Shown: piece after piece, positions 5,216 through 44,701 of the stretch | Position numbering within the stretch: position 1 is the first letter of the stretch | Layout of the letters: the number at the start of each line of letters is the position of its first letter | Assembly (NCBI GenBank): GCA_021793315.1 | Contig: JAJYSZ010000001.1 | Coordinates: 52,423 to 116,422 of the forward strand | Source of the DNA: Bacillota bacterium | Lineage (GTDB): Bacteria; Bacillota; Sulfobacillia; JAJZYS01; JAJYTV01 | Direction: 5' to 3' | DNA length: 64,000 nucleotides | Position numbers and translations under genes: made by a program | The notes under the pieces: generated by a model | The model's input: only the letters and a program-made list of their open reading frames with translations | Databases searched by the model: none | What the model was told of the DNA's origin: nothing

Positions 5216-6058
5216 TCAGCGGCCCAGCCGGCTCCGGCTGACGAGTCGCCTGGCGACGATGTTGACGATCACGATCAGCAGGAGGAGCAGGAGACCTGCT
5301 GCGTACGCGAGCGCCTGAGCCGGCGCGAACGGTTCGTTGATGTAGGTCCAGACCACATAGGTGAGGTAGCCGATCGGGGAGTGCGTCAGCTGGAGGTTCG
5401 GCATGTAGTTGGACCAGCCGGCCGTATAGAGCAGCGGCGCCGTCTCGCCGATCGCAATCGACAGCGCGAGCAGCACGCCGGTGACGACGCCTGGCAGGGC
5501 CTCGCGCAGCGTCACGCGCCAGATCGTCGTGGTCTGGCTGGCGCCGAGCGCCATGGACGCCTCGCGCATGCCGCGCGGCACCTTGCTGAGCGCGGTCTCG
5601 GTCGAGCGCACCACGTAGGGAACGCCGATCAGCGCAAGGGCGATGGCTCCGGCCAGGGTCGAGAAGCCCCAGCCCAGGCCGAGCACCAGCGTGACGTAGC
5701 CAAAGTAGCCGATGACGATCGACGGCACCCCGGCCATGACGTCGGTCGTGAAGCGGATGAACTGCGCAAAGCGCCCGGATGGATCCACCTCGCCCACGTA
5801 GACGCCGGCCATGATGCCGAGCGGGCCCGCAAACAGGATGCCGAGCCCCACGACGTAGAAGGTGCCGACGATGGCGTTTGCAAGCCCGCCGCCCGTACCG
5901 ACGGTGACCTCCGTGAAGAGGCTCGGCGTAAGCGCGGGCAACGCATGACTCACGACGAGCCAGAGCATCCCGATCACCGGCACCAGGATGATGAGGCCCA
6001 TGAGCACCGCCAAGCCCAGCATGATGCGGTCCTTCAGATGCCGCCACGCGACGGTCAC
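5216..6058 (-). CDS. pstA: phosphate ABC transporter permease PstA
   Basis: 280 aa, 6 TM, ABC permease EAA-type loop (REASMALGASQTTTIWRVTLREALPG). Overlaps pstC by 4 nt. Confidence 0.9.
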   Translation of the reverse strand: MTVAWRHLKDRIMLGLAVLMGLIILVPVIGMLWLVVSHALPALTPSLFTEVTVGTGGGLANAIVGTFYVVGLGILFAGPLGIMAGVYVGEVDPSGRFAQFIRFTTDVMAGVPSIVIGYFGYVTLVLGLGWGFSTLAGAIALALIGVPYVVRSTETALSKVPRGMREASMALGASQTTTIWRVTLREALPGVVTGVLLALSIAIGETAPLLYTAGWSNYMPNLQLTHSPIGYLTYVVWTYINEPFAPAQALAYAAGLLLLLLIVIVNIVARRLVSRSRLGR

Positions 6059-7056
6059 TGGGCCTCACCGCCCTTCTTGACGGCGCGGGAGAGCAGGAGC
6101 CGCGCCGGGACGTTGACGAGGATGCTCATGACGAAGAGCACCAGCGCGATCTCGGCCAGAGCGTGGACCGCCATGCCCGTCGGGTCGGTCATGGCCGAGT
6201 CGAGCTGCGACACGATCGTCGCGGCCATGGTGCCGATCGGGCTGAAGATGTTCTGCGGCAGGTAGTTGACCGCGCTGCCGGACACCATGAGCACCGCCAT
6301 CGTCTCGCCCAGTGCCCGGCCGAGGCCCAGGATCACGGCGCCGAAGATGCCGCTCGCCGACCACGGCAGCGACACGGCGCGGATCATCTCCCAGCGCGTC
6401 AGGCCGAGTCCGAGCGCCCCTTCCTTCGTCTCGCGCGGCGTCTGGCGGAGCACGTCGCGGGTCGTCGCCGCGATGATCGGCGTGATCATGACGGCGAGCA
6501 CGAGCCCTGCGGCGAGAAGTCCCTGGCCGGAGCCGATCGGGCCCCGGAAGAAGGGGATGAAGCCGAAGACCGCCTGCAACCAGGGTCCGAGGTCCCGGCC
6601 GATCCAGGGGATCAGCACCGCGATACCCCAGAGGCCGATCACCACCGACGGGATGCCTGCCAGCATCTCGACGACGAAGGAAAGGCTTTCGCCAATCCGC
6701 CACGGCAGGTACTCGACGAGCAGGAGGCCGATGCCGACGGCGAGTGGCACCGCCAGCAGCACCGCGATCAGGGAGCTCAAAAGGGTGCCGAGGATGAACG
6801 GCAGGATGCCGTACGCGGCGCCGGCGGGCGCGACGACGCCGTTGTGGTGGCTCAGGGAGTTGCCGTAGAGGTTGCCGATGTTCCAGCTGATCGACGTGAG
6901 GAAGTGCCCGCCGTTGTAGAGGATCGACGGCCACGAATCGCGCAGCAGGAAAATGAGAATCGCCGCCATGGCCACGAGCGAGCCACCGGCAATGATGCCG
7001 GTGGCCACCCGCATGACTCGGTCCAGGGCGCGCACTTTGCCGGGCGTCGCCATCAC
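6055..7056 (-). CDS. pstC: phosphate ABC transporter permease PstC
   Basis: 333 aa, PstC-like with EAA loop (LGLTRWEMIRAVSLPWSASGIFGA). Confidence 0.9.
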   Translation of the reverse strand: MMATPGKVRALDRVMRVATGIIAGGSLVAMAAILIFLLRDSWPSILYNGGHFLTSISWNIGNLYGNSLSHHNGVVAPAGAAYGILPFILGTLLSSLIAVLLAVPLAVGIGLLLVEYLPWRIGESLSFVVEMLAGIPSVVIGLWGIAVLIPWIGRDLGPWLQAVFGFIPFFRGPIGSGQGLLAAGLVLAVMITPIIAATTRDVLRQTPRETKEGALGLGLTRWEMIRAVSLPWSASGIFGAVILGLGRALGETMAVLMVSGSAVNYLPQNIFSPIGTMAATIVSQLDSAMTDPTGMAVHALAEIALVLFVMSILVNVPARLLLSRAVKKGGEAQ

Positions 7057-7081: not shown

Positions 7082-8167
7082 CTACTTAACCTTCGCGATC
7101 TGCGCCTCGCTCAGCTTGACGATGGCGGAGGGCAGCGGGAGGAAGTGGACCTGGTTCACGTAGGAGGGCTGGTTGCCGGTCGTGAGCGCCCAGGTGAGGA
7201 ACTGGCGCACCGCCTTGGCCGTCGCCGAGGACGACTGCTTCGCGTTCACGATCGCGTACTCGTAGTTGATGATCGGGTAGGCGCCCTGCGCCGGGCCGTA
7301 GATCAGCGAGACGCGCTCGTCCTTGGGCGTGGTGCCGACAAGGCTCTGGGCTTCGGTGGAGATCGTCTGCGCGGTCGGCAGCACGAACTGGCCGGCCTTG
7401 TTCTCGATCGCCGCGTAGCCGAGACCGTCCTGGACGGCCTGGTTCAGGAACGAGATGCCGACGTAGGCGATGCCGCCCTTGTTCTGCTGCAGGGCCTCGA
7501 CCATGCCGCCATTGCCCGTCGCGCTGATCGAGTTCGGCACCGAGGGCCATGAGATCGTCGTCGCGTACTGCGGTCCCTTGGAGGAACCCCAGGTGGTCGG
7601 GTTCGAGAACGAGAGGTACTGCGAGAACAGGAATGTGTCACCCGAACCGTCCGCGCGGTGGATCGGCACGATCTTGAGGGCCGGCAACTGCACGCCGGGG
7701 TTCAGCGCCTTGATCGCGGAATCGTTCCACATCGTGATCGAGCCGGTGTAGATGCCTGCGATGACCTGGCCGGAGAGGTGCAGGTGCTGCTGGTTGAGAC
7801 CGGGCAGGTTGTACATGATCTGCTGCGCCGAAATCGCGAGCGGGATATTGAGCATGCCAGGGTCGGCCTGCATCTGCGCGTTCGCCATGTAGGCGTCCGA
7901 CGCGCCGATCTGCACGGTGCCGTTCACGGCGTCCGAGATGCCGGTACCGGAGCCTGTGCCCTGCGGCGTGATCTTGATGTTCTTGTGGGTCTTCGTATAC
8001 GCGGGAGCCCAGATCTGGAAGAGCGGGTACAGAAGCGTGGACCCGGTCTCCTGCAATGATACCGGACCCTGGCTTGCCGTCGAGGTCGAGCCGCAGCCCG
8101 CGAGCGTCAGGGCGAGCGCGCCGACCAGTGCCGCCGCAAGACCGCCACTGCGCAAGGAAAACGTCAC
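7082..8167 (-). CDS. pstS: phosphate-binding lipoprotein PstS
   Basis: Lipobox LTLAGCGS, PBP2 phosphate-binding fold (TGSGTGISD...). GTG start with AAGGGAGGG RBS. Confidence 0.9.
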   Translation of the reverse strand: MTFSLRSGGLAAALVGALALTLAGCGSTSTASQGPVSLQETGSTLLYPLFQIWAPAYTKTHKNIKITPQGTGSGTGISDAVNGTVQIGASDAYMANAQMQADPGMLNIPLAISAQQIMYNLPGLNQQHLHLSGQVIAGIYTGSITMWNDSAIKALNPGVQLPALKIVPIHRADGSGDTFLFSQYLSFSNPTTWGSSKGPQYATTISWPSVPNSISATGNGGMVEALQQNKGGIAYVGISFLNQAVQDGLGYAAIENKAGQFVLPTAQTISTEAQSLVGTTPKDERVSLIYGPAQGAYPIINYEYAIVNAKQSSSATAKAVRQFLTWALTTGNQPSYVNQVHFLPLPSAIVKLSEAQIAKVK

Positions 8168-8255
8168 GCGTAGCCCTCCCTTGGTCGTTCGAGGGCAGCA
8201 TACACGCGCTCTGTTACGGCCAAGTTAAGTCGCGCGATTTTCAAATGAGCGGCAG

Positions 8256-9503
8256 CTAAGCCCCGGTCGACACGACCTTTGCGGCCACCTCCGTCTTGCC
8301 GAACCAGAGGACGAGCAATAGCGCCACAAGCGAACTCGCGATGCTGACCAAAAACATGGCCTGATATGCCCCATGCGATACGGCGATCACCTGGCCCGCG
8401 AGCGGCGCCGCCACCATCAGGCCGAGCGACTGCACGAGGTTGGCATTGCCGTAGAGCGCGCCATGCAAGTGCGCGGCCATCTCCTTGGCGTCGTCCTCGC
8501 TCAGGCCGCGCCGCAGGTGCTGGCGCAGCATGTCGGCGGCCAGGGGATAGCTCGTCACCTGGATGCCGCCCCAGGCAAGGCCCGCGACAAAGAGGAGCAT
8601 GAAGGCCTCGCTGACGGTCGTGAGCCAGAGTCCGGTCGATGCCGCGAGCGCAAAGAGCGCAAGCGTCGCTCCGAGCAGGATGCGCGCATCGTGCCGCTCG
8701 TAGAGGCGGCCGAACCAGAGCGAGACGAAGATGCCCGCCACCGTGAAGACGGACATGCCGAGCGCGGAGTCGAGCAGGCTGCCGTGCAGGGAGTGCTCCA
8801 TGTACGGCGTGAAGAAGCTGGCGATCGCCTCGAAACTCAGCCACCAGAGCCCCTGCGCGACGTAGTACTTGAGCAGCGCCGGGCTGCGCAGGGCGGCGGC
8901 CGCACCCCGCGCCGGGCGCTTGGGCGTCTCGCTGCGCTCCTTGGCCGTGAACGCCGTCCAGAGGCCGCCGCCGAGCAGGATCACCGCGCCGAGCACGAAG
9001 CCCAGCACGTGGCTCACAAGCTCGTACACCAGCGGCACGACAAGGAAGGCGATCAGGTTGCCGAGCGTCCAGAGCAGGTTCAAGATGCCCGACGCCTCGC
9101 CGTAGTCCTTCTCCTCCACGCGGTCCGGCATCATGGCCTGGTAGGGCGTCGGGCTGAGCTGCTGGAAGAAGTAGAAGAGAAGGGTCGCCGCGATGGCAAG
9201 CGTCAGGCTCTTCGTCAGGTAGAAGAGCATCAGCATGATCGCCGCACCGGGGAACGCGACGAAGAGATAGGGACGGCGCCTGCCAATCCTGGTTGGCGTG
9301 CGGTCGGAAAGCCAGCCCGAGAGGGGGTTCAGCACCACGCCGAACAGGCCCTCCGCGCCGAGCACCGAACCGATCAGCTGCGTCGACGGCGTCAGGGCGC
9401 CGAGCATCGCCGCCGTGAAGACCTTGTTCATGCCCCAGCCGACGTTGCGTCCGAGCCCTGCGAGTCCGAGCAGCCACACGTAGCGGCGCTCGCGCTTGTC
9501 CAA
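8256..9503 (-). CDS. MFS transporter (GPH/sugar-phosphate-like)
   Basis: 415 aa, 12 TM, DRTPTRIGRRRPYL motif after TM2. Confidence 0.8.
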   Translation of the reverse strand: MDKRERRYVWLLGLAGLGRNVGWGMNKVFTAAMLGALTPSTQLIGSVLGAEGLFGVVLNPLSGWLSDRTPTRIGRRRPYLFVAFPGAAIMLMLFYLTKSLTLAIAATLLFYFFQQLSPTPYQAMMPDRVEEKDYGEASGILNLLWTLGNLIAFLVVPLVYELVSHVLGFVLGAVILLGGGLWTAFTAKERSETPKRPARGAAAALRSPALLKYYVAQGLWWLSFEAIASFFTPYMEHSLHGSLLDSALGMSVFTVAGIFVSLWFGRLYERHDARILLGATLALFALAASTGLWLTTVSEAFMLLFVAGLAWGGIQVTSYPLAADMLRQHLRRGLSEDDAKEMAAHLHGALYGNANLVQSLGLMVAAPLAGQVIAVSHGAYQAMFLVSIASSLVALLLVLWFGKTEVAAKVVSTGA

Positions 9504-22508: not shown

Positions 22509-23216
22509 CTACGAGGCGGGCTGCGGAATGTGGAGGTCTGTGCGCGTTCTTAGATGGAGCGCCTCCGCCCAGACCGCGCCCGCCTGGAGCCCCTGCGCCC
22601 TCATCTGCTCGTCGAGACGCGCGAGGTAGGGATCCTCGGGTCCGAATTGCGAGCGGTGACAGGCGATCGCACGACTGCGCGCCGCATGAGCCTCGGGGTC
22701 GAGGGGGCTCAGGACGTCCGCCCGGTCGGGGAAGTAGAAGAGGATACCCTTGACCGTCCAGGGCGCGAGTTCGTCCGGCGCGTAGTGGACGAGCCCCGAG
22801 AGCAGGGCTGCCTCCGCCACCGCAAAGCCGACCGCCCGGTGGTCCGAGTGCGCCTCGTAGCGCAGCCAGGGATCGCAGACGAAGACGAAGTCGGGCCGGC
22901 AGCGGCGGATCTCGCGCACCGCGCGGTCGCGCAGATCGTAGGCGTCGAAGGGGCCGCCGTCGGGCAGCCCGAGCATGTGGAGGCGAGCGCCGAGCACGGC
23001 CGCGGCGGCCTCCGCCTCGCCACGGCGCAGGCGGGCGACCGCGTCGGGCGGGACGCCGGGGTCCCGCGTGCCAAGCCTGCCATCCGTCACGACGGTCAGG
23101 TGCACCTCGGCGCCCCGGCGCCCAAGGCTCCAAAGTGTGCCGCCGCAGCCGAGTTCCGCATCGTCCGGATGCGGCGAGAAGGCCAGGTAGCGCTCGGATC
23201 TCCGCCAGTCCTGCAA
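22509..23216 (-). CDS. PIG-L/LmbE family N-acetylglucosaminyl deacetylase
   Basis: AFSPHPDDAELGCGGTL, HSDHRAVG motifs. Confidence 0.8.
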   Translation of the reverse strand: MQDWRRSERYLAFSPHPDDAELGCGGTLWSLGRRGAEVHLTVVTDGRLGTRDPGVPPDAVARLRRGEAEAAAAVLGARLHMLGLPDGGPFDAYDLRDRAVREIRRCRPDFVFVCDPWLRYEAHSDHRAVGFAVAEAALLSGLVHYAPDELAPWTVKGILFYFPDRADVLSPLDPEAHAARSRAIACHRSQFGPEDPYLARLDEQMRAQGLQAGAVWAEALHLRTRTDLHIPQPAS

Positions 23217-23244: not shown

Positions 23245-23583
23245 CTACAGACTCAGGGAGTTCTCGAGGGGCAGCACGAAGACGACGGTGCCGCTCTCCC
23301 AGTCGCCGTAGGCGTAGGGCTGCGCCGGCCCCGCGCTCTGGCGCAGGTCCTGCACGATCTCGTCCACGTCGTCCTCGGGTGCCACCAGCACCAGCACCGC
23401 GCTGCCGCGCCTGAGAAAGCCCCCCTGGGCCAGAAGGCGCGTGAAGCGTCGCTGCCGGTGGCGCAGGAAGGTCTCCACTTTTCCCAGCCGCGGCTCAGGC
23501 ACCACGGCGATCACCTGACGCAGTCCCCCGCCGTGGTTCTCGTCCGGCACGGGTTGTCCCCCTCCGCTCTGGTCTCGCCTCAT
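23245..23583 (-). CDS. DarA/YaaQ-like PII-fold c-di-AMP receptor protein (DUF970)
   Basis: RQVIAVVPEPRLGKVETFLRHRQRRFTRLLAQGGFLRRGSAVLVLVAPEDDVDEIVQDL...SGTVVFVLPLE aligns along its length with B. subtilis DarA. The ATG at 23583 overlaps the dnaE2 stop (ATGA). Alternative GTG at 23512. Confidence 0.65.
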   Translation of the reverse strand: MRRDQSGGGQPVPDENHGGGLRQVIAVVPEPRLGKVETFLRHRQRRFTRLLAQGGFLRRGSAVLVLVAPEDDVDEIVQDLRQSAGPAQPYAYGDWESGTVVFVLPLENSLSL

Positions 23584-26500
23584 TCTACGCGCAGACCCAG
23601 GTCAGGCTCAAAGAGTTCCTCCGCACGCAGCGTGAGGCCCCGCCCGCGCCGCTGCACCCTGCCCAGGACGCCCAGAAGGGGCGGCCGCTTGCCGAAGAGC
23701 AGGTCGCCCTGGCGCCGGTAGACATCTTCCATTGCGACGAGATCCAAAAGTCCTGTCTCATCCTCGAGCATAAAGAACGCCACCACCGCACCGCTGCGCG
23801 TCGGCGGCCTGTGCGGCCGGTATGGCACGCCCGCCACGCGGACCGTCTCGCCGTGGCGCAGATGCTTGGTGAGCCCGACGCTGGCGATGCCCTGCCGCTT
23901 CAGGGCCGGTCTGGCCGCCGCCGCGAGGCGGCTGGGCCCGCGCAGGCCGAGCACGGCCTCCTGGCGCCAGAATCGCTGCCAGGGCGCGAAATCCGGCATC
24001 TCCGGCGGCACGGGAGGGAAGAGGCCGTCCGCCTCGCGCCGCGCCCCGATCTGGAGGAGCAGCCGGCGCCGGTTGCGGTCGAAGCAGTCGAGGGCTCCCC
24101 CGTCGCAGAGCGCCGCAAGCTCGTCCGCCTTGAGGCCTGTGCGGGCGGCCAGGTCCTGCAGGCTCCGGAACGGCCCTTCCCGCCGTGCCGCCAGGATGCG
24201 TTCGCGCTGCGCCGCGCCGAGGCCGCGCACGGCGCAGAGCCCTACGCGCACGGCGCCGTCGGCCTCCACCGTATAGGAAGACTCGGATCGCCTGATGTCG
24301 AGCGGCCGGAAGCGCACCCCGCGCCGCAGGGCCTCGCCGACCAGGATGTGCGGCGGGTAGTAGCCCATCGGCTGCTGCGACAGAAGCCCGGCGAAGAGCG
24401 CCTGCGGGCGGCGGGCGGAAAGCTGCGCGGTGCGCAGCGCGGTGTGCGCGAAGGCGGCGGCATGCGCCTCGGGAAAGCCGTAGCTCGCATAACCCTGCAG
24501 CATCGCGAAGATCTCCCGCGCCACCGTAGGATCGCTGCCGTTCTCGGTCGCCTTCTGACAGAAGAGTTCACCCAGGCTCTCCATCTCGGCGGCCGAGCGC
24601 GCATGCGTCATCACGCGGCGCAGCTGGTCGGACTCGCCCAGCGTGAAGCCGCCGATCGTGGTCGCGATCTCGATCACCTGCTCCTGGAAGAGCACGACGC
24701 CGTACGTCTTCTCGAGGATCGGCCTGAGGCGCGGATCGAGGTAGGTGACGCTCTCCTGCCCGGCGCGCCGCCTGAGATACGGGGTGACCATGTTGCCCTT
24801 GATCGGCCCCGGCCGGATAATCGCGAGCGCATGGACGATGTCCTCGAAACTCTTCGCGCCCATCTGCCCTTGCAGGGCGCGCTGCGCCGGGCTCTCGAGC
24901 TGGAAGAGCCCGATCGTCTCCCCCGAGGCGACGAGCGCCATCGCCGCAGGGTCTTCCGCGGCCCTGGCCTCGGCAAGATCGGGCGCGGCCCTGTACGCCT
25001 CGTCCAGCACGGCGAGCGTGCGCAGGCTGAGCAGGTCGAACTTGAGGAAGCCGAGATCCTCGACATCCACCTTGTCGAACGGCACGATCGCCACACCCTT
25101 GGCCGACAGTTGGCGCGGCGCCACCTCGTTCACGGGCTGGCGGCTCACGATCAGCCCGCCGAGGTGCGTGCCGAGATGGCGCGGCAGCCCGGCCACGGCT
25201 GCCGCCGCGCGCAGCAGCAGCGCAAGGCGCTCGGAGGCGCCGGATGCCGCCTGAAGCTCGGGAAAGAGGTCCCAGTGTTTTAGAATCGCATCAGCGGGCA
25301 TGTGCGGCAGACGGCGCTGCAGTTCCTCCACCTCCGCGGCGGGAAAGCCGAGCGCCTTGCCGAGGTCGCGCACGGCCGAACGCCCCTGAAACGTCTGGTA
25401 GGTGGCGACGCCAGCGACATGTTCCTCGCCATAGCGCTGGAAGAGGTAGGCGGCGACGCGGTCGCGCGCGCGGTGGTCGAAATCGAGGTCGATGTCGGGC
25501 CGCTCGGCCCGCTCGCGGTTCAGAAAGCGTTCGAAGAGCAGGTGCCGCGCGATCGGGTCGACCTCCGTCAGGCCAAGGCAGTAGGCGACGGCGGAGTCCG
25601 CGGCCGAGCCGCGCCCCGCGACGCGGATGCCCTCCGAGCGCGCGAAGCGGACAACATCCCAGACAAGCAGGAAGTACTCGGCGAAACCGAGCTCCGCGAT
25701 CGTGCCGAGCTCGTGCTGCAGGCGCCGCCTCACCTCCTCCCGCAGGCTGCCGTAGCGGCGGATGGCCCCCTCGTGCACCAGTTGCTCCAGCATGCCCTGC
25801 GCCGTGTGTCCCGGCGGCAAGGGATAAGCGGGGTAGAGGCGCACGCCGGGCGTGATCGGTGCGCTGCAGCGCGCTGCGATCTCGTCGGTCGCCGCAATGA
25901 GTTCCGGCCGGTCCGAGAAGCGCTCCCGCATCTCCGCCGCGGAGAGAAGGTAGCGCTCGCCGTTCAAGGGACGCTGGGGGCGCACCTCGTCGACGCTGCA
26001 GCCGAGCCGCACGCACGTCAAAAGGTCGTGCACCCAAAAATCCTCGCGCCGCAGGTGGTGCACCGCCGCGCTTGCCGCCTGCGGCAGGTCCAGGCGACGC
26101 GCAAGCTCCTCAAGTCCCGCCTCGAGAGCCAGGTCGCCAGGCAGGGCACCGCGCTGCACCTCCACATAGAGCCGGCCGGGAAACAGTTCGCGCAGGCGCC
26201 GCAGCGCCTGGTCGGCGAGATCCGGGCGCCTCGTCAGGAGCGCTCTCGCAACCGGGCCCGTACGGCCGCCGGTGAGCGCGATCAGCCCATCCTCGCCGGC
26301 AAGCGCCTGATACGGCAGGCGCGGCGCACCCCGCCGGGAGCCGAGATGTGCCGTCGTCAGCAGGCGGCAGAGCCCCGCATATCCCTCTGGACCCGTCGCG
26401 AGCAAGGTCAGGCGCGCACCGTCCGCAAGCGTCACCTCGCTGCCGGCGATGGGCTGGATGTCGAGCCGCCGCGCCGCACGGCAGAGGGACGGCACGCCGC

Positions 26501-26627
26501 TCACGCTGTCATGGTCGGTGAGGGCGATCGCCTTCTGTCCGAGCTCCGCCGCGCGCGTGGCCAGCGCCTCGGGCATCGCCGTCCCGTCCAGAAGCGAGAA
26601 GGCGGAGTGCACGTGCAGGTGCACCAA
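23580..26627 (-). CDS. dnaE2: error-prone DNA polymerase DnaE2 (Pol III alpha C-family)
   Basis: PHP domain HLHVHSAFSLLDG, full Pol III alpha core, ~1015 aa without tau/beta-binding tail. Probable TTG/GTG start near 26627 after AGGAAGGA. Track ORF runs to 26711. Confidence 0.9.
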   Translation of the reverse strand: MVHLHVHSAFSLLDGTAMPEALATRAAELGQKAIALTDHDSVSGVPSLCRAARRLDIQPIAGSEVTLADGARLTLLATGPEGYAGLCRLLTTAHLGSRRGAPRLPYQALAGEDGLIALTGGRTGPVARALLTRRPDLADQALRRLRELFPGRLYVEVQRGALPGDLALEAGLEELARRLDLPQAASAAVHHLRREDFWVHDLLTCVRLGCSVDEVRPQRPLNGERYLLSAAEMRERFSDRPELIAATDEIAARCSAPITPGVRLYPAYPLPPGHTAQGMLEQLVHEGAIRRYGSLREEVRRRLQHELGTIAELGFAEYFLLVWDVVRFARSEGIRVAGRGSAADSAVAYCLGLTEVDPIARHLLFERFLNRERAERPDIDLDFDHRARDRVAAYLFQRYGEEHVAGVATYQTFQGRSAVRDLGKALGFPAAEVEELQRRLPHMPADAILKHWDLFPELQAASGASERLALLLRAAAAVAGLPRHLGTHLGGLIVSRQPVNEVAPRQLSAKGVAIVPFDKVDVEDLGFLKFDLLSLRTLAVLDEAYRAAPDLAEARAAEDPAAMALVASGETIGLFQLESPAQRALQGQMGAKSFEDIVHALAIIRPGPIKGNMVTPYLRRRAGQESVTYLDPRLRPILEKTYGVVLFQEQVIEIATTIGGFTLGESDQLRRVMTHARSAAEMESLGELFCQKATENGSDPTVAREIFAMLQGYASYGFPEAHAAAFAHTALRTAQLSARRPQALFAGLLSQQPMGYYPPHILVGEALRRGVRFRPLDIRRSESSYTVEADGAVRVGLCAVRGLGAAQRERILAARREGPFRSLQDLAARTGLKADELAALCDGGALDCFDRNRRRLLLQIGARREADGLFPPVPPEMPDFAPWQRFWRQEAVLGLRGPSRLAAAARPALKRQGIASVGLTKHLRHGETVRVAGVPYRPHRPPTRSGAVVAFFMLEDETGLLDLVAMEDVYRRQGDLLFGKRPPLLGVLGRVQRRGRGLTLRAEELFEPDLGLRVE

Positions 26628-26753
26628 TCTGCATACGTCCTTCCTGGGGTGCGCAAAGCCTCCCCGGCGCCGGGCGACGGGAGGCGGCCAGCAGGAACCC
26701 ATCCGACCCATCCGGAACGAGCCTCAGCAGAAGGAGGCGGCGCTACGCGCGAA

Positions 26754-27263
26754 CTGACCTTCCGCCGCCTCCAGGCGGGCGATCTGCCGCTCCTCGGCTC
26801 CTGGCTCGCCCTGGAGCCGGCCCTGCGCTGGTACCAGGGCGGCAAGGCGCCGACGGCGGCGGAGCTTGAGGCGAAGTACCTGCCGCGCATCCGCGGCGAG
26901 GTGGCGGTCGCCTGCTGGATCCTGATGCGCCAGGAGCAGCCGGCCGGCTTCTTCCAGACCTATCGCCTGCGGGACTTCCCATCTCATCCAGCCGGTCCCC
27001 GACCGCGCGCCGCCGCCCTTGACTACCTGCTCGCGCCGTCGGCGCAGGGCCAGGGCCTTGCCGCCCCGGCCCTGCTCGCGTTCCTGCATCAGGTGGTGTT
27101 CGCGGCGCCGGACATCCTGCGCTGCTACGCGGATCCTGACCCGGCCAACCTCGCCTCGGTGCGCTCCCTGCGCCGCGCAGGCTTCCGCAAGAGCCCCGGG
27201 CCCCAGGCCGAAGGGGTCATGCTGCTCTCCTGCACGCGCCGCCGGGCCTTCGCTCAGTCGTAG
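26754..27263 (+). CDS. GNAT N-acetyltransferase, AAC(6')-Ib-like family
   Basis: LTFRRLQAGDLPLLGSWL...RWYQGG...YLP...LDYLLAPSAQGQGL...CYADPDPANLASVRSLRRAGF parallels AAC(6')-Ib. Strong AAGGAGG RBS at 26731-26737, but no ATG/GTG/TTG in frame between the RBS and the conserved N-terminus (candidates CTG 26754 or ACG 26745). Convergent with and overlapping the DUF4113-like ORF by 10 nt. Confidence 0.65.
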   Translation: MTFRRLQAGDLPLLGSWLALEPALRWYQGGKAPTAAELEAKYLPRIRGEVAVACWILMRQEQPAGFFQTYRLRDFPSHPAGPRPRAAALDYLLAPSAQGQGLAAPALLAFLHQVVFAAPDILRCYADPDPANLASVRSLRRAGFRKSPGPQAEGVMLLSCTRRRAFAQS

Positions 27264-28654: not shown

Positions 28655-28675
28655 GTGTCGCCTCGTTCCGTTTCA

Positions 28676-28687
28676 GAACATTTGTTC
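28676..28687 (-). promoter_or_regulatory. LexA (DinR/Cheo-type) SOS box in imuB promoter
   Basis: GAACATTTGTTC is a perfect GAAC-N4-GTTC palindrome. It sits 8 nt downstream of the -10 and about 22 nt upstream of the imuB ATG. Confidence 0.7.
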
Positions 28688-28695
28688 TTATTCGG

Positions 28696-28724
28696 AGTAT
28701 AGGCAGCAACCAGCCGGTCGTCAA
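28696..28724 (-). promoter_or_regulatory. sigma-A type promoter of imuB operon
   Basis: Minus-strand TTGACG-N17-TATACT, immediately followed by the LexA box. Confidence 0.6.
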
Positions 28725-28806: not shown

Positions 28807-28985
28807 TCAGGCGATCAAGCTGTAAATCCAAAGGAAGACGGCAAGCGTGATGACGCCGACGAGTACGGCATCCATGTCCACCACGGTCCCCTGCACGGCG
28901 CTCCCGGCAGCGAGGGCAACTTGTCCGAGCATCATCGCGCCGGAGAACACGCCAAGGAACAGCCAACGACGCAACTCCGCCACCC
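28807..28985 (-). CDS. small hydrophobic membrane protein (59 aa, GTG start), speculative
   Basis: VAELRRWLFLGVFSGAMMLGQVALAAGSAVQGTVVDMDAVLVGVITLAVFLWIYSLIA with one clear TM helix. Extended -10 TGCTACAAT just upstream. Own terminator. Missed by the track (<60 aa, non-ATG). Confidence 0.3.
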
Positions 28986-29252
28986 CCCATGCGTACGACG
29001 CACATTGTAGCAGAATTGCGCCAAATGCTCATGGTCATTTGGCCGTTGGCGTGGCCAGGCGGACCAGCACCGCGTCGCCGCGCGACCGAAGACGCCCAAA
29101 TCGCACCAAGGCTCCACAGCGGCAGGAGCGGCCAACAAAGCCAGAGAATTCACCTGTACGGATCTACACGGCATTTAGTAAAATGCACGGAAAGGATCGT
29201 CGGCCTAGCGGCTGACGACCCGAGATCCGCGGCGGAGTGGGAGGTGTTCCGC

Positions 29253-29705
29253 ATGGCCCACCGGTTGTTCACGGTGTCCGAGGCGAACGCTCTCGTGCCA
29301 TTCCTGGAAGGCCATCTTCGACGCCTTCAGGAACTGCAACGGCAGGCACAGTCCCACTTCGAGGAGATGGAGCGGATCAAGGCGGTCGGCTACAAGCCTG
29401 ACGGCAAGCTGATCCTGCAGCGGGACTTCCAGGACACCCGGGACGCCTTCGACCGCTCGGTTGCGGAGGCGAACGCCCGGATCGCCGACATCAACCGCAC
29501 CGGCTGCCAGCTCAAGAGCGTGGAGTCAGGGCTTGTGGACTTCCCGAGCGTGCTTGAAGACCATGAGGTGCTGCTCTGCTGGAAGGTCGGCGAAGACGCC
29601 CTGCGTCACTTCCACTCGCCACTTGAGGGCTTCGACGGACGCCGCCAGCTGCCCGACTGGGCGCTGCCGCAGGAGTCCAGCGACCCGAACGCAAACGCGA
29701 GCTGA
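29253..29705 (+). CDS. hypothetical protein, DUF2203-like
   Basis: ATG 29253 with GGGAGG RBS. MAHRLFTVSEANALVPFLEGHLRRLQELQRQ... resembles the DUF2203 N-terminus (F-T-x-EEANALLP). Confidence 0.5.
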   Translation: MAHRLFTVSEANALVPFLEGHLRRLQELQRQAQSHFEEMERIKAVGYKPDGKLILQRDFQDTRDAFDRSVAEANARIADINRTGCQLKSVESGLVDFPSVLEDHEVLLCWKVGEDALRHFHSPLEGFDGRRQLPDWALPQESSDPNANAS

Positions 29706-42853: not shown

Positions 42854-44701
42854 GTGGCAAAGGCGGACGCGGTTGCGCCGCAGCGCAGGGGCCTCGGCCA
42901 AGTGCTGAGGCCCGTTGCGCATTTCGTGGTGCGCCTGGTTCCGCCAAGCCGCAGGGCGGAACTCGAGCGGGCAGGCACCACGCCCTATGGCTTCGGGCTG
43001 GGCCTGGCCGTCTACCTGGTGCTCACCCTCGCCGTGCTGGGACCCACGCTCGTGCGTCCCGGCGGGAGCTTCCCAGGCTATGGCGGCGACGCGGAGCAGT
43101 ACATGTGGTACATCGGCTGGTTCTGGCATGCCGTCGCGTCAGGCAAGAACCCCTTCATCACTCTCTTGATCAACTACCCGCACGGCATGAACCTGATGTG
43201 GAACACGTCGATCATCGCGGAATCGGTCCTCCTGGGCCCGCTGGCCGCCACGATCGGCACCACCGCAAGCTACAACCTCTGGTTCGGGCTGAACTACGTT
43301 TTGGCCGGGGTCCTGGGACAGGCGATCTGGGCCCGCCTCGGCGCACGCCAGTGGCTCAGCATCCTGGGCGGCCTCTTGACCGTGACACTGCCCTACATGA
43401 CGACGCAGGCCCTCTCCCACATCAGCCTGATCACGATCGAGCTCCTGCTGGGCATCGTGCTGATCCTGCTGAAGCTCGCGCAGGACCGGCCGCACCGGGT
43501 GTGGCTCTGGGGCGTCCTGGCGGGCGCCCTGCTCGCACTGCAGTTCTACACGCTGCTCGAGGTGCTGGTCAGCGCCGTCCTGACAGGTGCACTCACGCTG
43601 GTCGTCGCCTGGTTCGCCGCCCGCCAGGATCTTGTCCGGGTCGCGCGGCGCATCCCGCCCGCCTTCTGGGTGGCGGCCGCCGTCACGGCGGGCGTCCTCG
43701 CCGCTCCGGGGCTCTACGAGATGCTGTTCGGGCCGTTCCGCGTCTTCCACTCGGTGCAGCCCCCGAACGTCTACGTAGTCGACCTCGTGAACCTCATCCT
43801 GCCAACCCACGCCTTCCTCGTGCACTTCCCCGGCACCGATCCCGCGGCCTGGTTCACGGGCAACTTCGCCGAGGACAACGGCTACCTCGGCATCCCGGCC
43901 CTGCTGCTGCTCCTCTGGGCCGTGCGCCGGCTCTGGCGGCGGCCGCTGGTGCGCGTGCTCGCCATCGTCGCGGGCATCGTCACCGTGCTGGCCCTTGGCC
44001 ACACGCTGCACCTGATCGGCTGGACGTCGCCCCTGCCGCTGCCCTGGGCGGCGGTCAGCCTGCTGCCCTTCGTCAAGGACCTGCTGCCAACCCGCCTCAT
44101 GCTCTATACCGACCTCGCCGTCGTGGCCATCACCGTACTGGCCGTCGAGGACTACCTTCGCCACGGCGGCACCGGGGCGGGACACAGGCCATACTGGCTT
44201 TTGGGCCTGATGGTCGCCACGTGGCTGCCCGTCCTGCCCTATCCCAATACCACGCTCCCGCAAGCCACGGTGGACATGGCGCCCAAGACCGCGGTGGCGA
44301 AGGCGCTGCGCGGACAGCCCACCTACGTGCTCACCATGGCGTTCCCCGAGACCATGCAGATGCTGCAGCAGGCGGGCTACAGCTTCCCTGTCGCCAATGT
44401 CTACGGCCACAACGACAACACCATCAGACGCCAGCAGCAGCTGCAGGGCGTCCAGGTGTTGCTGAACCCGAGTCTCGCCCCGGAGATCTACCAGACCATT
44501 CTTGTCGACGACCTGATGCGGCTGCATGTCACGCGGCTCTACTTCCTGCCGCGCCCGAACTACGGTTCGACCACGATCCCTCAGGAGGCCCTGCGCCAGA
44601 TCAACGCGACGCTCGGGCCGCCGATCGCCGCCTCGCCCACTGGCAGCATCGTCTGGCGCGTGCCGAAAACTCCGGTCTTCGAACAGAACCCACAGCCGTA
44701 A
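42854..44701 (+). CDS. large polytopic membrane protein, probable GT-C glycosyltransferase (YfhO/PMT-like)
   Basis: 615 aa, >12 TM. Conserved-looking loop GGDAEQYMWYIGWFWHAVASGKNPFITLLINYPHGMNL near the N-terminus. Directly follows the GT2 gene (8-nt gap). Confidence 0.55.
   Translation: MAKADAVAPQRRGLGQVLRPVAHFVVRLVPPSRRAELERAGTTPYGFGLGLAVYLVLTLAVLGPTLVRPGGSFPGYGGDAEQYMWYIGWFWHAVASGKNPFITLLINYPHGMNLMWNTSIIAESVLLGPLAATIGTTASYNLWFGLNYVLAGVLGQAIWARLGARQWLSILGGLLTVTLPYMTTQALSHISLITIELLLGIVLILLKLAQDRPHRVWLWGVLAGALLALQFYTLLEVLVSAVLTGALTLVVAWFAARQDLVRVARRIPPAFWVAAAVTAGVLAAPGLYEMLFGPFRVFHSVQPPNVYVVDLVNLILPTHAFLVHFPGTDPAAWFTGNFAEDNGYLGIPALLLLLWAVRRLWRRPLVRVLAIVAGIVTVLALGHTLHLIGWTSPLPLPWAAVSLLPFVKDLLPTRLMLYTDLAVVAITVLAVEDYLRHGGTGAGHRPYWLLGLMVATWLPVLPYPNTTLPQATVDMAPKTAVAKALRGQPTYVLTMAFPETMQMLQQAGYSFPVANVYGHNDNTIRRQQQLQGVQVLLNPSLAPEIYQTILVDDLMRLHVTRLYFLPRPNYGSTTIPQEALRQINATLGPPIAASPTGSIVWRVPKTPVFEQNPQP

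Follow-up and report, generated by a model that had tools for sequence, protein, structure and literature searches.

The DarA (YaaQ) protein of Bacillus subtilis and the PstA proteins of Staphylococcus aureus and Listeria monocytogenes belong to the cyclic di-AMP (c-di-AMP) receptor family CdAMP_rec (PF06153). The canonical pstA/darA gene lies in an operon with tmk, which encodes thymidylate kinase, and this arrangement was invariable in the six Firmicutes species analysed (PMC4475381). PstA contacts c-di-AMP through residues described in detail, the N41A variant binds the ligand much more weakly, and the B-loop moves upon c-di-AMP binding, Gly94 providing a phosphate contact there (PMC4475381). 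DarB acts without bound ligand, as DarA also appears to do, and the partner of DarA has escaped identification (PMC10636490). On the side of mutagenesis, Timinskas and Venclovas (2019; PMC6511836) described a 'Kyrpidia tusciae type' of mutasome cassette, iPolY-ImuB-C-DnaE2, which is devoid of ImuA, and listed Thermaerobacter marianensis among its carriers; iPolY stands for an inactive Y-family polymerase. Neither that paper nor its supplement mentions a DarA, YaaQ or PII gene in such cassettes, and our literature search found no description of an association of a DarA, c-di-AMP or PII gene with dnaE2, imuB or DUF6504. Here we analyse a 64,000-nucleotide stretch of a Bacillota bacterium genome (GenBank assembly GCA_021793315.1, contig JAJYSZ010000001.1, positions 52,423 to 116,422), called the window below, in which a cassette of this kind ends with a fourth gene, located directly behind dnaE2 and encoding a DarA/PstA-like protein. 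The remodelled DarA/PstA-like protein and the four-gene version of the described mutasome cassette are variations on known types, and it is their gene order that suggests a possible second-messenger control of damage-induced mutagenesis.

The product of the small open reading frame (ORF) behind dnaE2 is a member of the DarA/PstA family of c-di-AMP receptors, as the first-pass annotation of this DNA had claimed. In a search with profile hidden Markov models it matched Pfam CdAMP_rec PF06153 with 27.0 bits, exactly the gathering score (27), over profile positions 3-61 only, and its homologues have the same family already assigned in precomputed annotation. The NCBIfam DarA equivalog model NF058593 gave 30.1 bits over profile positions 3-64 only and did not reach its cut-off of 140. 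The comparison of the single sequence with those of the PDB by phmmer returned S. aureus PstA (E 1.7e-5) and B. subtilis DarA/YaaQ (E 4e-4). With a profile built from 18 sequences of its clade, a small group of hot-spring (thermophilic) Bacillota that is represented by metagenome-assembled genomes (MAGs) only, the respective values were 3.9e-11 and 1.1e-8. The alignment of the clade profile with DarA spans the entire protein, but the earlier claim of an alignment along the whole length of DarA is too strong in view of the B-loop, where a deletion of 17 residues is required, of the low equivalog score, and of the location of canonical pstA/darA with tmk.

The AlphaFold model of the protein (64 homologues; predicted local distance difference test score 85, predicted template-modelling score 0.77) has the beta-alpha-beta-beta-alpha-beta topology of PII proteins. 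Its best Foldseek matches are PstA (4d3h/4wk1, template-modelling score, TM, of 0.75-0.79), the P. pentosaceus protein 3m05, and DarA (4rle), with TM of 0.72-0.79 for the top four, while GlnB and GlnK proteins form a second tier behind these structures. The Pfam, phmmer, clade-profile, and AlphaFold/Foldseek results together place the protein within the DarA/PstA (CdAMP_rec) branch of PII-like proteins, of which it is a genuine but divergent member, although it is not an equivalog of DarA. With the canonical PII proteins GlnB and GlnK it shares the ferredoxin-like beta-alpha-beta fold, but neither their long T-loop nor their Walker-like B-loop, nor the motifs of ATP, ADP and 2-oxoglutarate binding, are present in it. 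The family model matched a single ORF (23245-23601) among all six-frame ORFs of the window, which indicates that there is no second CdAMP_rec copy in this stretch.

Residues of the ligand pocket were mapped with the use of the PstA contacts given in PMC4475381 and of alignments to PstA and DarA, and their variation was scored over the 18 clade sequences. The T-loop is of the short type, and its GGF[LM] segment, equivalent to Gly34-Gly35-Phe36-Leu37 of PstA, is kept and invariant or nearly so, as are the equivalents of PstA Arg26, Thr28, and Phe99; like DarA and PstA, the protein has no C-loop and no Walker-like motif in the B-loop. The position of Asn41, which contacts the ribose, is occupied by Ser, Thr, or Asn. 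The changes at Asn41 and Gly47 would amount to a conservative substitution and to a replacement at a main-chain contact, respectively. The binding of c-di-AMP by the protein is plausible as a prediction. As judged by the same alignments, the B-loop, which is the output element of the DarA/PstA family, is remodelled in the clade, where it is strongly conserved in sequence (GPAQ...E.GT), in contrast to the poorly conserved canonical B-loop. Two further traits distinguish the protein from DarA and PstA. One is a short (~10 residues), acidic N-terminal tail of low model confidence, and the other is a basic motif, LRH[RQHE]x-RR[FY]TR, which is specific to the clade and invariant in it. This motif borders the cleft, and its residues R30, H31, R34, and R35 (101-aa numbering; aa, amino acids) form an extra cluster at the alpha1/beta2 side. 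The net charge of the DarA-like proteins is near neutral across the clade, and DNA binding by bulk charge was dropped from consideration for this reason.

Beyond the clade, the sequences closest to it (33-41% identity, 60-79 bits) are those of Chloroflexota CdAMP_rec proteins with a short B-loop and of CdAMP_rec proteins of about 220 aa in which two domains are fused. Like the window protein, they have a short B-loop without the GGA kink, but they differ from it in that they have kept Asn41 and Gly47. Their genes form tandem pairs of a long and a short member, or the two forms are fused, and they lie in unrelated surroundings, never next to dnaE2. Tandem pairs of a short-B-loop protein (92-99 aa) and a protein of canonical length (112-126 aa) occur in Chloroflexota and in another lineage, e.g., at positions 7974-8273 and 8298-8636 of locus L015 and 6001-6381 and 6378-6656 of locus L058, as well as in L013, L017, L020, L022, L024, L027, and L032; the long-form relative P0049 belongs to another such pair in an unrelated context. 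Our exhaustive search also revealed many proteins of about 210-260 aa in which a long-loop and a short-loop domain are fused in one chain. The tandem and fused forms suggest the existence of hetero-oligomeric DarA-type receptors.

The cassette that precedes the DarA-like gene (Table 1) shares with the Kyrpidia-type cassette of PMC6511836 its three genes and their order, an operator of the LexA type, the lack of imuA, and a PolY-like protein from the same group, classed there as inactive. It differs in the fourth gene, that of the DarA-like PII protein, after dnaE2 and, in the subclade of the window, in a gene of the GNAT family on the opposite strand, which splits it. The conserved unit comprises the genes for the PolY-like protein (376-382 aa), the DUF6504 protein (81 aa), DnaE2, and the DarA-like protein, all in one direction and with no imuA in the operon. 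The position behind dnaE2, and not in a tmk operon, also distinguishes the DarA-like gene of this clade from canonical pstA/darA (PMC4475381).

A LexA box of the Cheo type lies directly downstream of the cassette -10 hexamer. The motif GAAC-N4-GTTC has only two matches in the 64-kb window, and the same layout of promoter and Cheo box was found upstream of the PolY-like gene in L045 (CGAACAGATGTTCT) and L048 (AGAACAAACGTTCT), that is, in three lineages in all. At the level of sequence motifs, the cassette would be under SOS (LexA) control. The other match to the motif in the window is GAACTACGGTTC at 44557-44568.

The PolY-like protein gave no match in a Pfam search. Its palm region aligned to no solved Y-family polymerase, and its thumb alone matched such structures, weakly. 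Reading by eye indicates GIGE where SIDE is expected, with the loss of the catalytic Asp. Its C-terminus, REQRLAYYDPY, corresponds to RERQLAYWDPW of the T. marianensis protein, which has the same cassette position and is classed as 'other_inactive' in the supplementary table of PMC6511836. The PolY-like protein is probably catalytically inactive. We infer that the DUF6504 protein is ImuB-C from its position between iPolY and DnaE2 and from the T. marianensis entry in PMC6511836. The best NCBIfam match of DnaE2 is the error-prone DNA polymerase model NF004225 (815 bits, below the curated cut-off of 939). The longest DnaE-type ORF spans 1043 codons (23580-26711, minus strand). However, since the homologues have 1013-1014 aa and the Shine-Dalgarno (SD) sequence GGAAGGA precedes a TTG or GTG codon at about 26624, dnaE2 probably starts with GTG 26624, about 29 codons inside this ORF, rather than with ATG 26711.

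The GNAT gene is inserted only in the window subclade (L003, L005, L006, and L050/51) and is absent from L052, L001, and L045-48. It appears to start with ACG (26745-26747, plus strand), 7 nucleotides (nt) past a strong GGAGG SD sequence and with no canonical in-frame start nearby. ACG is present also in L003, L005, and L050, and ATG in L006; the sharing of ACG by four of the five relatives suggests a conserved non-canonical start codon.

Table 1. Features of the DarA-like gene and the mutasome cassette in the window (positions in the 64,000-nt stretch)
Feature	Position	Strand	Basis and remarks
Short-B-loop DarA/PstA-like PII-fold protein	23245..23550	-	101 aa from conserved GTG; 112 aa if ATG 23583 used
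SD sequence GGAGGGGG of DarA-like gene	23558..23565	-	Sequence; equivalent purine-rich element before start in all relatives
Promoter-like element TTGAGC-18 nt-TAGAAT	23582..23611	-	Consensus scan; in last 30 nt (last ten codons) of dnaE2; putative function
dnaE2, error-prone C-family polymerase	23580..26624	-	PHP, DNA_pol3_alpha, finger, HHH_6, and OB domains; longest ORF to 26711
GNAT acetyltransferase, not part of system	26745..27263	+	Pfam Acetyltransf_8/3/1; splits ImuB-C from dnaE2
Standalone ImuB-C-like protein (DUF6504), 81 aa	27254..27499	-	Pfam PF20114, E 5.8e-13
Divergent Y-family polymerase-like protein (iPolY, ImuB substitute), probably inactive, 377 aa	27521..28654	-	Weak Pol IV thumb-region matches
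LexA (Cheo-type) box AGAACAAATGTTCT	28675..28688	-	Directly downstream of cassette -10; putative LexA binding, from known Gram-positive consensus
Cassette promoter, sigma-70-like TTGACG-17 nt-TATACT	28696..28724	-	10/12 matches; 0.2 sites expected in shuffles

The pattern scan, the homologue searches, and the metagenome scan provided 11 distinct contexts of the Bacillota clade for the analysis of the neighbourhood. In ten of them the 3' end of dnaE2 lies 21-31 nt upstream of the DarA-like gene. In the eleventh, L009, an insertion sequence has taken the place of dnaE2 and left its last ~15 nt, including a TACAAT hexamer. The adjacency that the first-pass annotation had noted in the window is a feature of the clade, as dnaE2 or its truncated remnant is upstream in all 11 contexts. 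The insertion sequence of L009 (positions 1-1190) encodes a serine recombinase of 221 aa with a MerR-like N-terminus (IS607-like) and is followed by an intact DarA-like gene. The flanks vary from context to context. Downstream there are Peptidase_M29 genes, a PIG-L/BshB1-like deacetylase gene, or a convergent polysaccharide deacetylase gene, and upstream a DUF2203 or an ABC transporter gene. The junction of dnaE2 with the DarA-like gene is unbroken while genes have been swapped or inserted downstream, upstream, and within the cassette. Within the clade the DnaE2 sequences are 67-99% identical; the corresponding ranges are 46-84% (PolY-like protein), 49-99% (DarA-like protein), and 75-99% (ImuB-C-like protein).

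Certain flanking elements of the window may be mentioned here. The PIG-L/BshB1-like deacetylase gene (22509-23216, minus strand) has a TTG start and the SD sequence GGAGGAG, begins 28 nt past the stop codon of the DarA-like gene, and is separated from it by nothing that resembles a terminator; the two genes may share a transcript in the window subclade. Thermaerobacter-type relatives have a G+C-rich hairpin and the Peptidase_M29 genes behind the DarA-like gene instead. Just upstream of the cassette, an ORF on the plus strand (28989-29705), which contains MAHRLFTVSEANALVP, occupies the position of the DUF2203 gene of L001 and L045/46, and an ORF on the cassette strand (28807-28983) encodes a hydrophobic product of 58 aa.

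The distribution of the subfamily was assessed in two further searches. The exhaustive HMMER search of 1.84 billion representatives yielded one intact 50% cluster of the subfamily (E 7e-43) and a related sequence, P0019 (E 3.7e-26), which is apparently frameshifted at its C-terminus; an exact look-up of P0001 returned no entry. The pattern scan of 185,579 genomes (one per species), besides members of the subfamily, detected distant relatives (33-41% identity) in 34 Chloroflexota MAGs. A survey of ImuB-C cassettes gave four matches in the search with the DUF6504 protein and eight loci in the metagenome scan, too few for a phyletic test.

The first-pass annotation had placed the start of the DarA-like gene at an ATG that overlaps the stop codon of dnaE2 and had proposed translational coupling through this overlap. 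The overlap does exist: the TGA of dnaE2 occupies positions 23582-23580 of the minus strand and the ATG 23583-23581, so that they form ATGA, which opens an ORF of 112 codons ending at 23245. Comparison with the relatives indicates, however, that this is not the conserved start of the gene. The latter is the GTG at 23550-23548, 29 nt past the dnaE2 stop, which gives a product of 101 aa and is preceded by an SD sequence that contains GGAGG, while ATG 23583 has none. In every lineage the junction alignments have a purine-rich SD sequence 7-10 nt ahead of a GTG or TTG start, and gene callers predict products of 99-103 aa for all database homologues. Only the window and its closest relatives (L003/4, L005, L050/51, and L052) have the overlapping ATG in the reading frame of the DarA-like core. 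In L006, L008, and L010/45-47 the frames differ, in L001 the ATG reaches a TAG after six codons, and L048, where the stop codon of dnaE2 is TAA, has no such ATG. Given a conserved start that lies 29 nt beyond the stop and has a separate SD sequence, coupling through ATGA is not supported. The protein is in fact slightly shorter than the 112-codon ORF, as had been considered possible, but not by way of the internal GTG at 23514-23512 that had been suggested as the alternative start; this codon has no SD sequence, encodes Val or Ile in the relatives, and was rejected.

A scan of the junction between dnaE2 and the DarA-like gene detected no terminator-like structure, and therefore read-through co-transcription from dnaE2 stays likely as a prediction from the sequence. 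A candidate for a promoter of the DarA-like gene itself is the sigma-70-like element in the 3' end of dnaE2 (Table 1), for which 0.2 sites are expected per shuffle of the region. Its -10 hexamer, TA[GC]AAT, is kept in all lineages, though the encoded residues differ. Among the codons within the hexamer, Val, Ile, and Leu are always encoded by the rare GTA, ATA, and TTA, Glu and Gln by GAA and CAA, and Phe always by TTT, while in dnaE2 as a whole (68% G+C) GTA accounts for 5% of Val, GAA for 17% of Glu, and TTT for 27% of Phe codons. This retention of rare codons points to selection on the DNA itself at the 3' end of dnaE2, most simply on a putative sigma-70-like promoter. The 'AT' of the overlapping ATG is a part of the hexamer. 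A promoter embedded in this way would place the ATG inside the -10 box, which counts against coupling through ATGA. A third sigma-70-like match, TTGCCC-17-GATAAT at 24793-24821 (plus strand), is antisense inside dnaE2 and may be either a chance match or an antisense promoter.

The reading that we put first, with a probability of roughly 45%, is that the DarA-like gene closes, as its fourth member, a mutasome cassette that is under SOS control and has no ImuA (probably inactive PolY, ImuB-C, DnaE2) and that its product serves as a second-messenger sensor of the mutasome. A regulatory link of this kind is plausible by analogy. The gene would be translated from its own SD sequence and GTG, 29 nt after the dnaE2 stop. 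Its transcripts probably have two sources, the LexA-controlled promoter by read-through and the conserved promoter in the 3' end of dnaE2, the latter of which would allow the sensor to exist before the polymerase is induced. While the family and fold of the protein, the conserved gene order, the start site, and the LexA box are observations, the ligand, the trimeric state, the partner, and the direction of regulation are what we infer, as follows. The PII protein, with its kept T-loop nucleotide pocket and its short, clade-conserved B-loop, would probably be a trimer that binds c-di-AMP in the clefts between subunits. As in other PII-type proteins, its contact with a partner would depend on the ligand state, and it would be made most likely in the apo form. 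The mutasome is the candidate partner because of the genomic context of the gene, and the component contacted would be DnaE2, iPolY, ImuB-C, or RecA. Under this model, error-prone synthesis would depend both on the cleavage of LexA and on the change in c-di-AMP after DNA damage (DisA pausing). The narrower proposal that the protein is a dedicated mutasome component which senses c-di-AMP and gates SOS mutagenesis post-translationally, and which would provide the first target class of DarA/PstA, seems to us rather unlikely as it stands.

Several observations weigh against the proposed sensor role, and some of them are better accommodated by the view that the gene is a syntenic passenger, i.e., a general-purpose and perhaps the only DarA-type c-di-AMP receptor of the lineage, with its own promoter and no functional tie to the mutasome. 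With the conserved internal promoter, the gene would be expressed independently at least in part, and its SD sequence is likewise its own. The clade is narrow, as the DnaE2 identities indicate, and the wider synteny (Polysacc_deac_1, PIG-L, adh_short, and YchF) is partly kept too; the adjacency could therefore result from inheritance and not from selection. Related cassettes elsewhere manage without the DarA-like gene: the more distant ImuB-DnaE2 loci L055-57, three of the eight metagenome-scan loci, have no CdAMP_rec gene, and the pattern scan found the subfamily in eight Bacillota MAGs only and in no cultured Thermaerobacter. In general, then, the cassette does not require its fourth gene. 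Moreover, canonical DarA is itself without a known partner or phenotype (PMC10636490), and the window contains neither a c-di-AMP riboswitch or other RNA family at gathering score nor any c-di-AMP cyclase that we could see, which is uninformative for the genome beyond the 64 kb. A passenger would, however, hardly be expected to keep the 21-31 nt junction through gene insertion and exchange downstream, upstream, and inside the cassette, nor to lack a terminator-like structure behind dnaE2. The protein is also not a canonical DarA, as seen in its short, conserved B-loop, its basic motif, and its 30 bits against the required 140, and it evolves at a rate similar to that of the accessory subunits, with 49-57% identity where iPolY has 46-51%. 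On balance we consider the passenger explanation, which is the main rival, possible but on the unlikely side.

The remaining points against the sensor role concern the pocket and would suit a structural or accessory subunit with another ligand or none, e.g., a PII-like scaffold in place of ImuA or a sensor of ATP/ADP, pApA, or (p)ppGpp. Gly47, a main-chain contact, is replaced by Val, Ala, or Thr and Thr97 by Val or Ile, nothing corresponds to the contact that His108 makes in the Listeria protein, the GGA kink, universally conserved in the canonical family, has become [SV]GT, and the B-loop has shrunk from 30 to about 13 residues. Together with the replacement of Asn41 by Ser or Thr, the invariant basic cluster at the cleft edge, and the absence of ImuA from the cassette, the conservation of the short B-loop, which suggests a fixed protein interface, speaks for such a subunit. 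Nevertheless, the parts of the pocket with the highest specificity for the second c-di-AMP adenine (GGF[LM], Arg26, and Thr28) are invariant, the near-neutral net charge gives no sign of a DNA-binding protein, and in the published model RecA replaces ImuA with no need of a new protein (PMC6511836), so that this explanation appears improbable. Least probable is the original version of the first-pass annotation, in which a 112-aa protein is translated from the overlapping ATG and is made in stoichiometric amounts with the polymerase. The overlap and the in-frame ATG of the closest loci agree with it, but the ATG is lost, stopped, or out of frame elsewhere, lies in a conserved hexamer, and competes with a strong SD sequence ahead of the GTG and with the 99-103 aa products called in all homologues.

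Some ten years of work have left the partner and the function of DarA/PstA among the listed open questions (PMC10636490), and the connection of DisA and c-di-AMP to DNA repair is likewise unresolved. The cassette described here offers a small, concrete set of candidate partners, namely DnaE2, the inactive PolY, ImuB-C, and RecA, and adds a fourth gene to a mutasome variant that was described as consisting of three, within a narrow clade known from MAGs only. If the sensor role of the DarA-like protein is true, the mutasome would be the first class of protein targets to be assigned to the DarA/PstA family, for which work on model Firmicutes has yielded no partner, and in the present clade a second messenger may license error-prone synthesis together with LexA.

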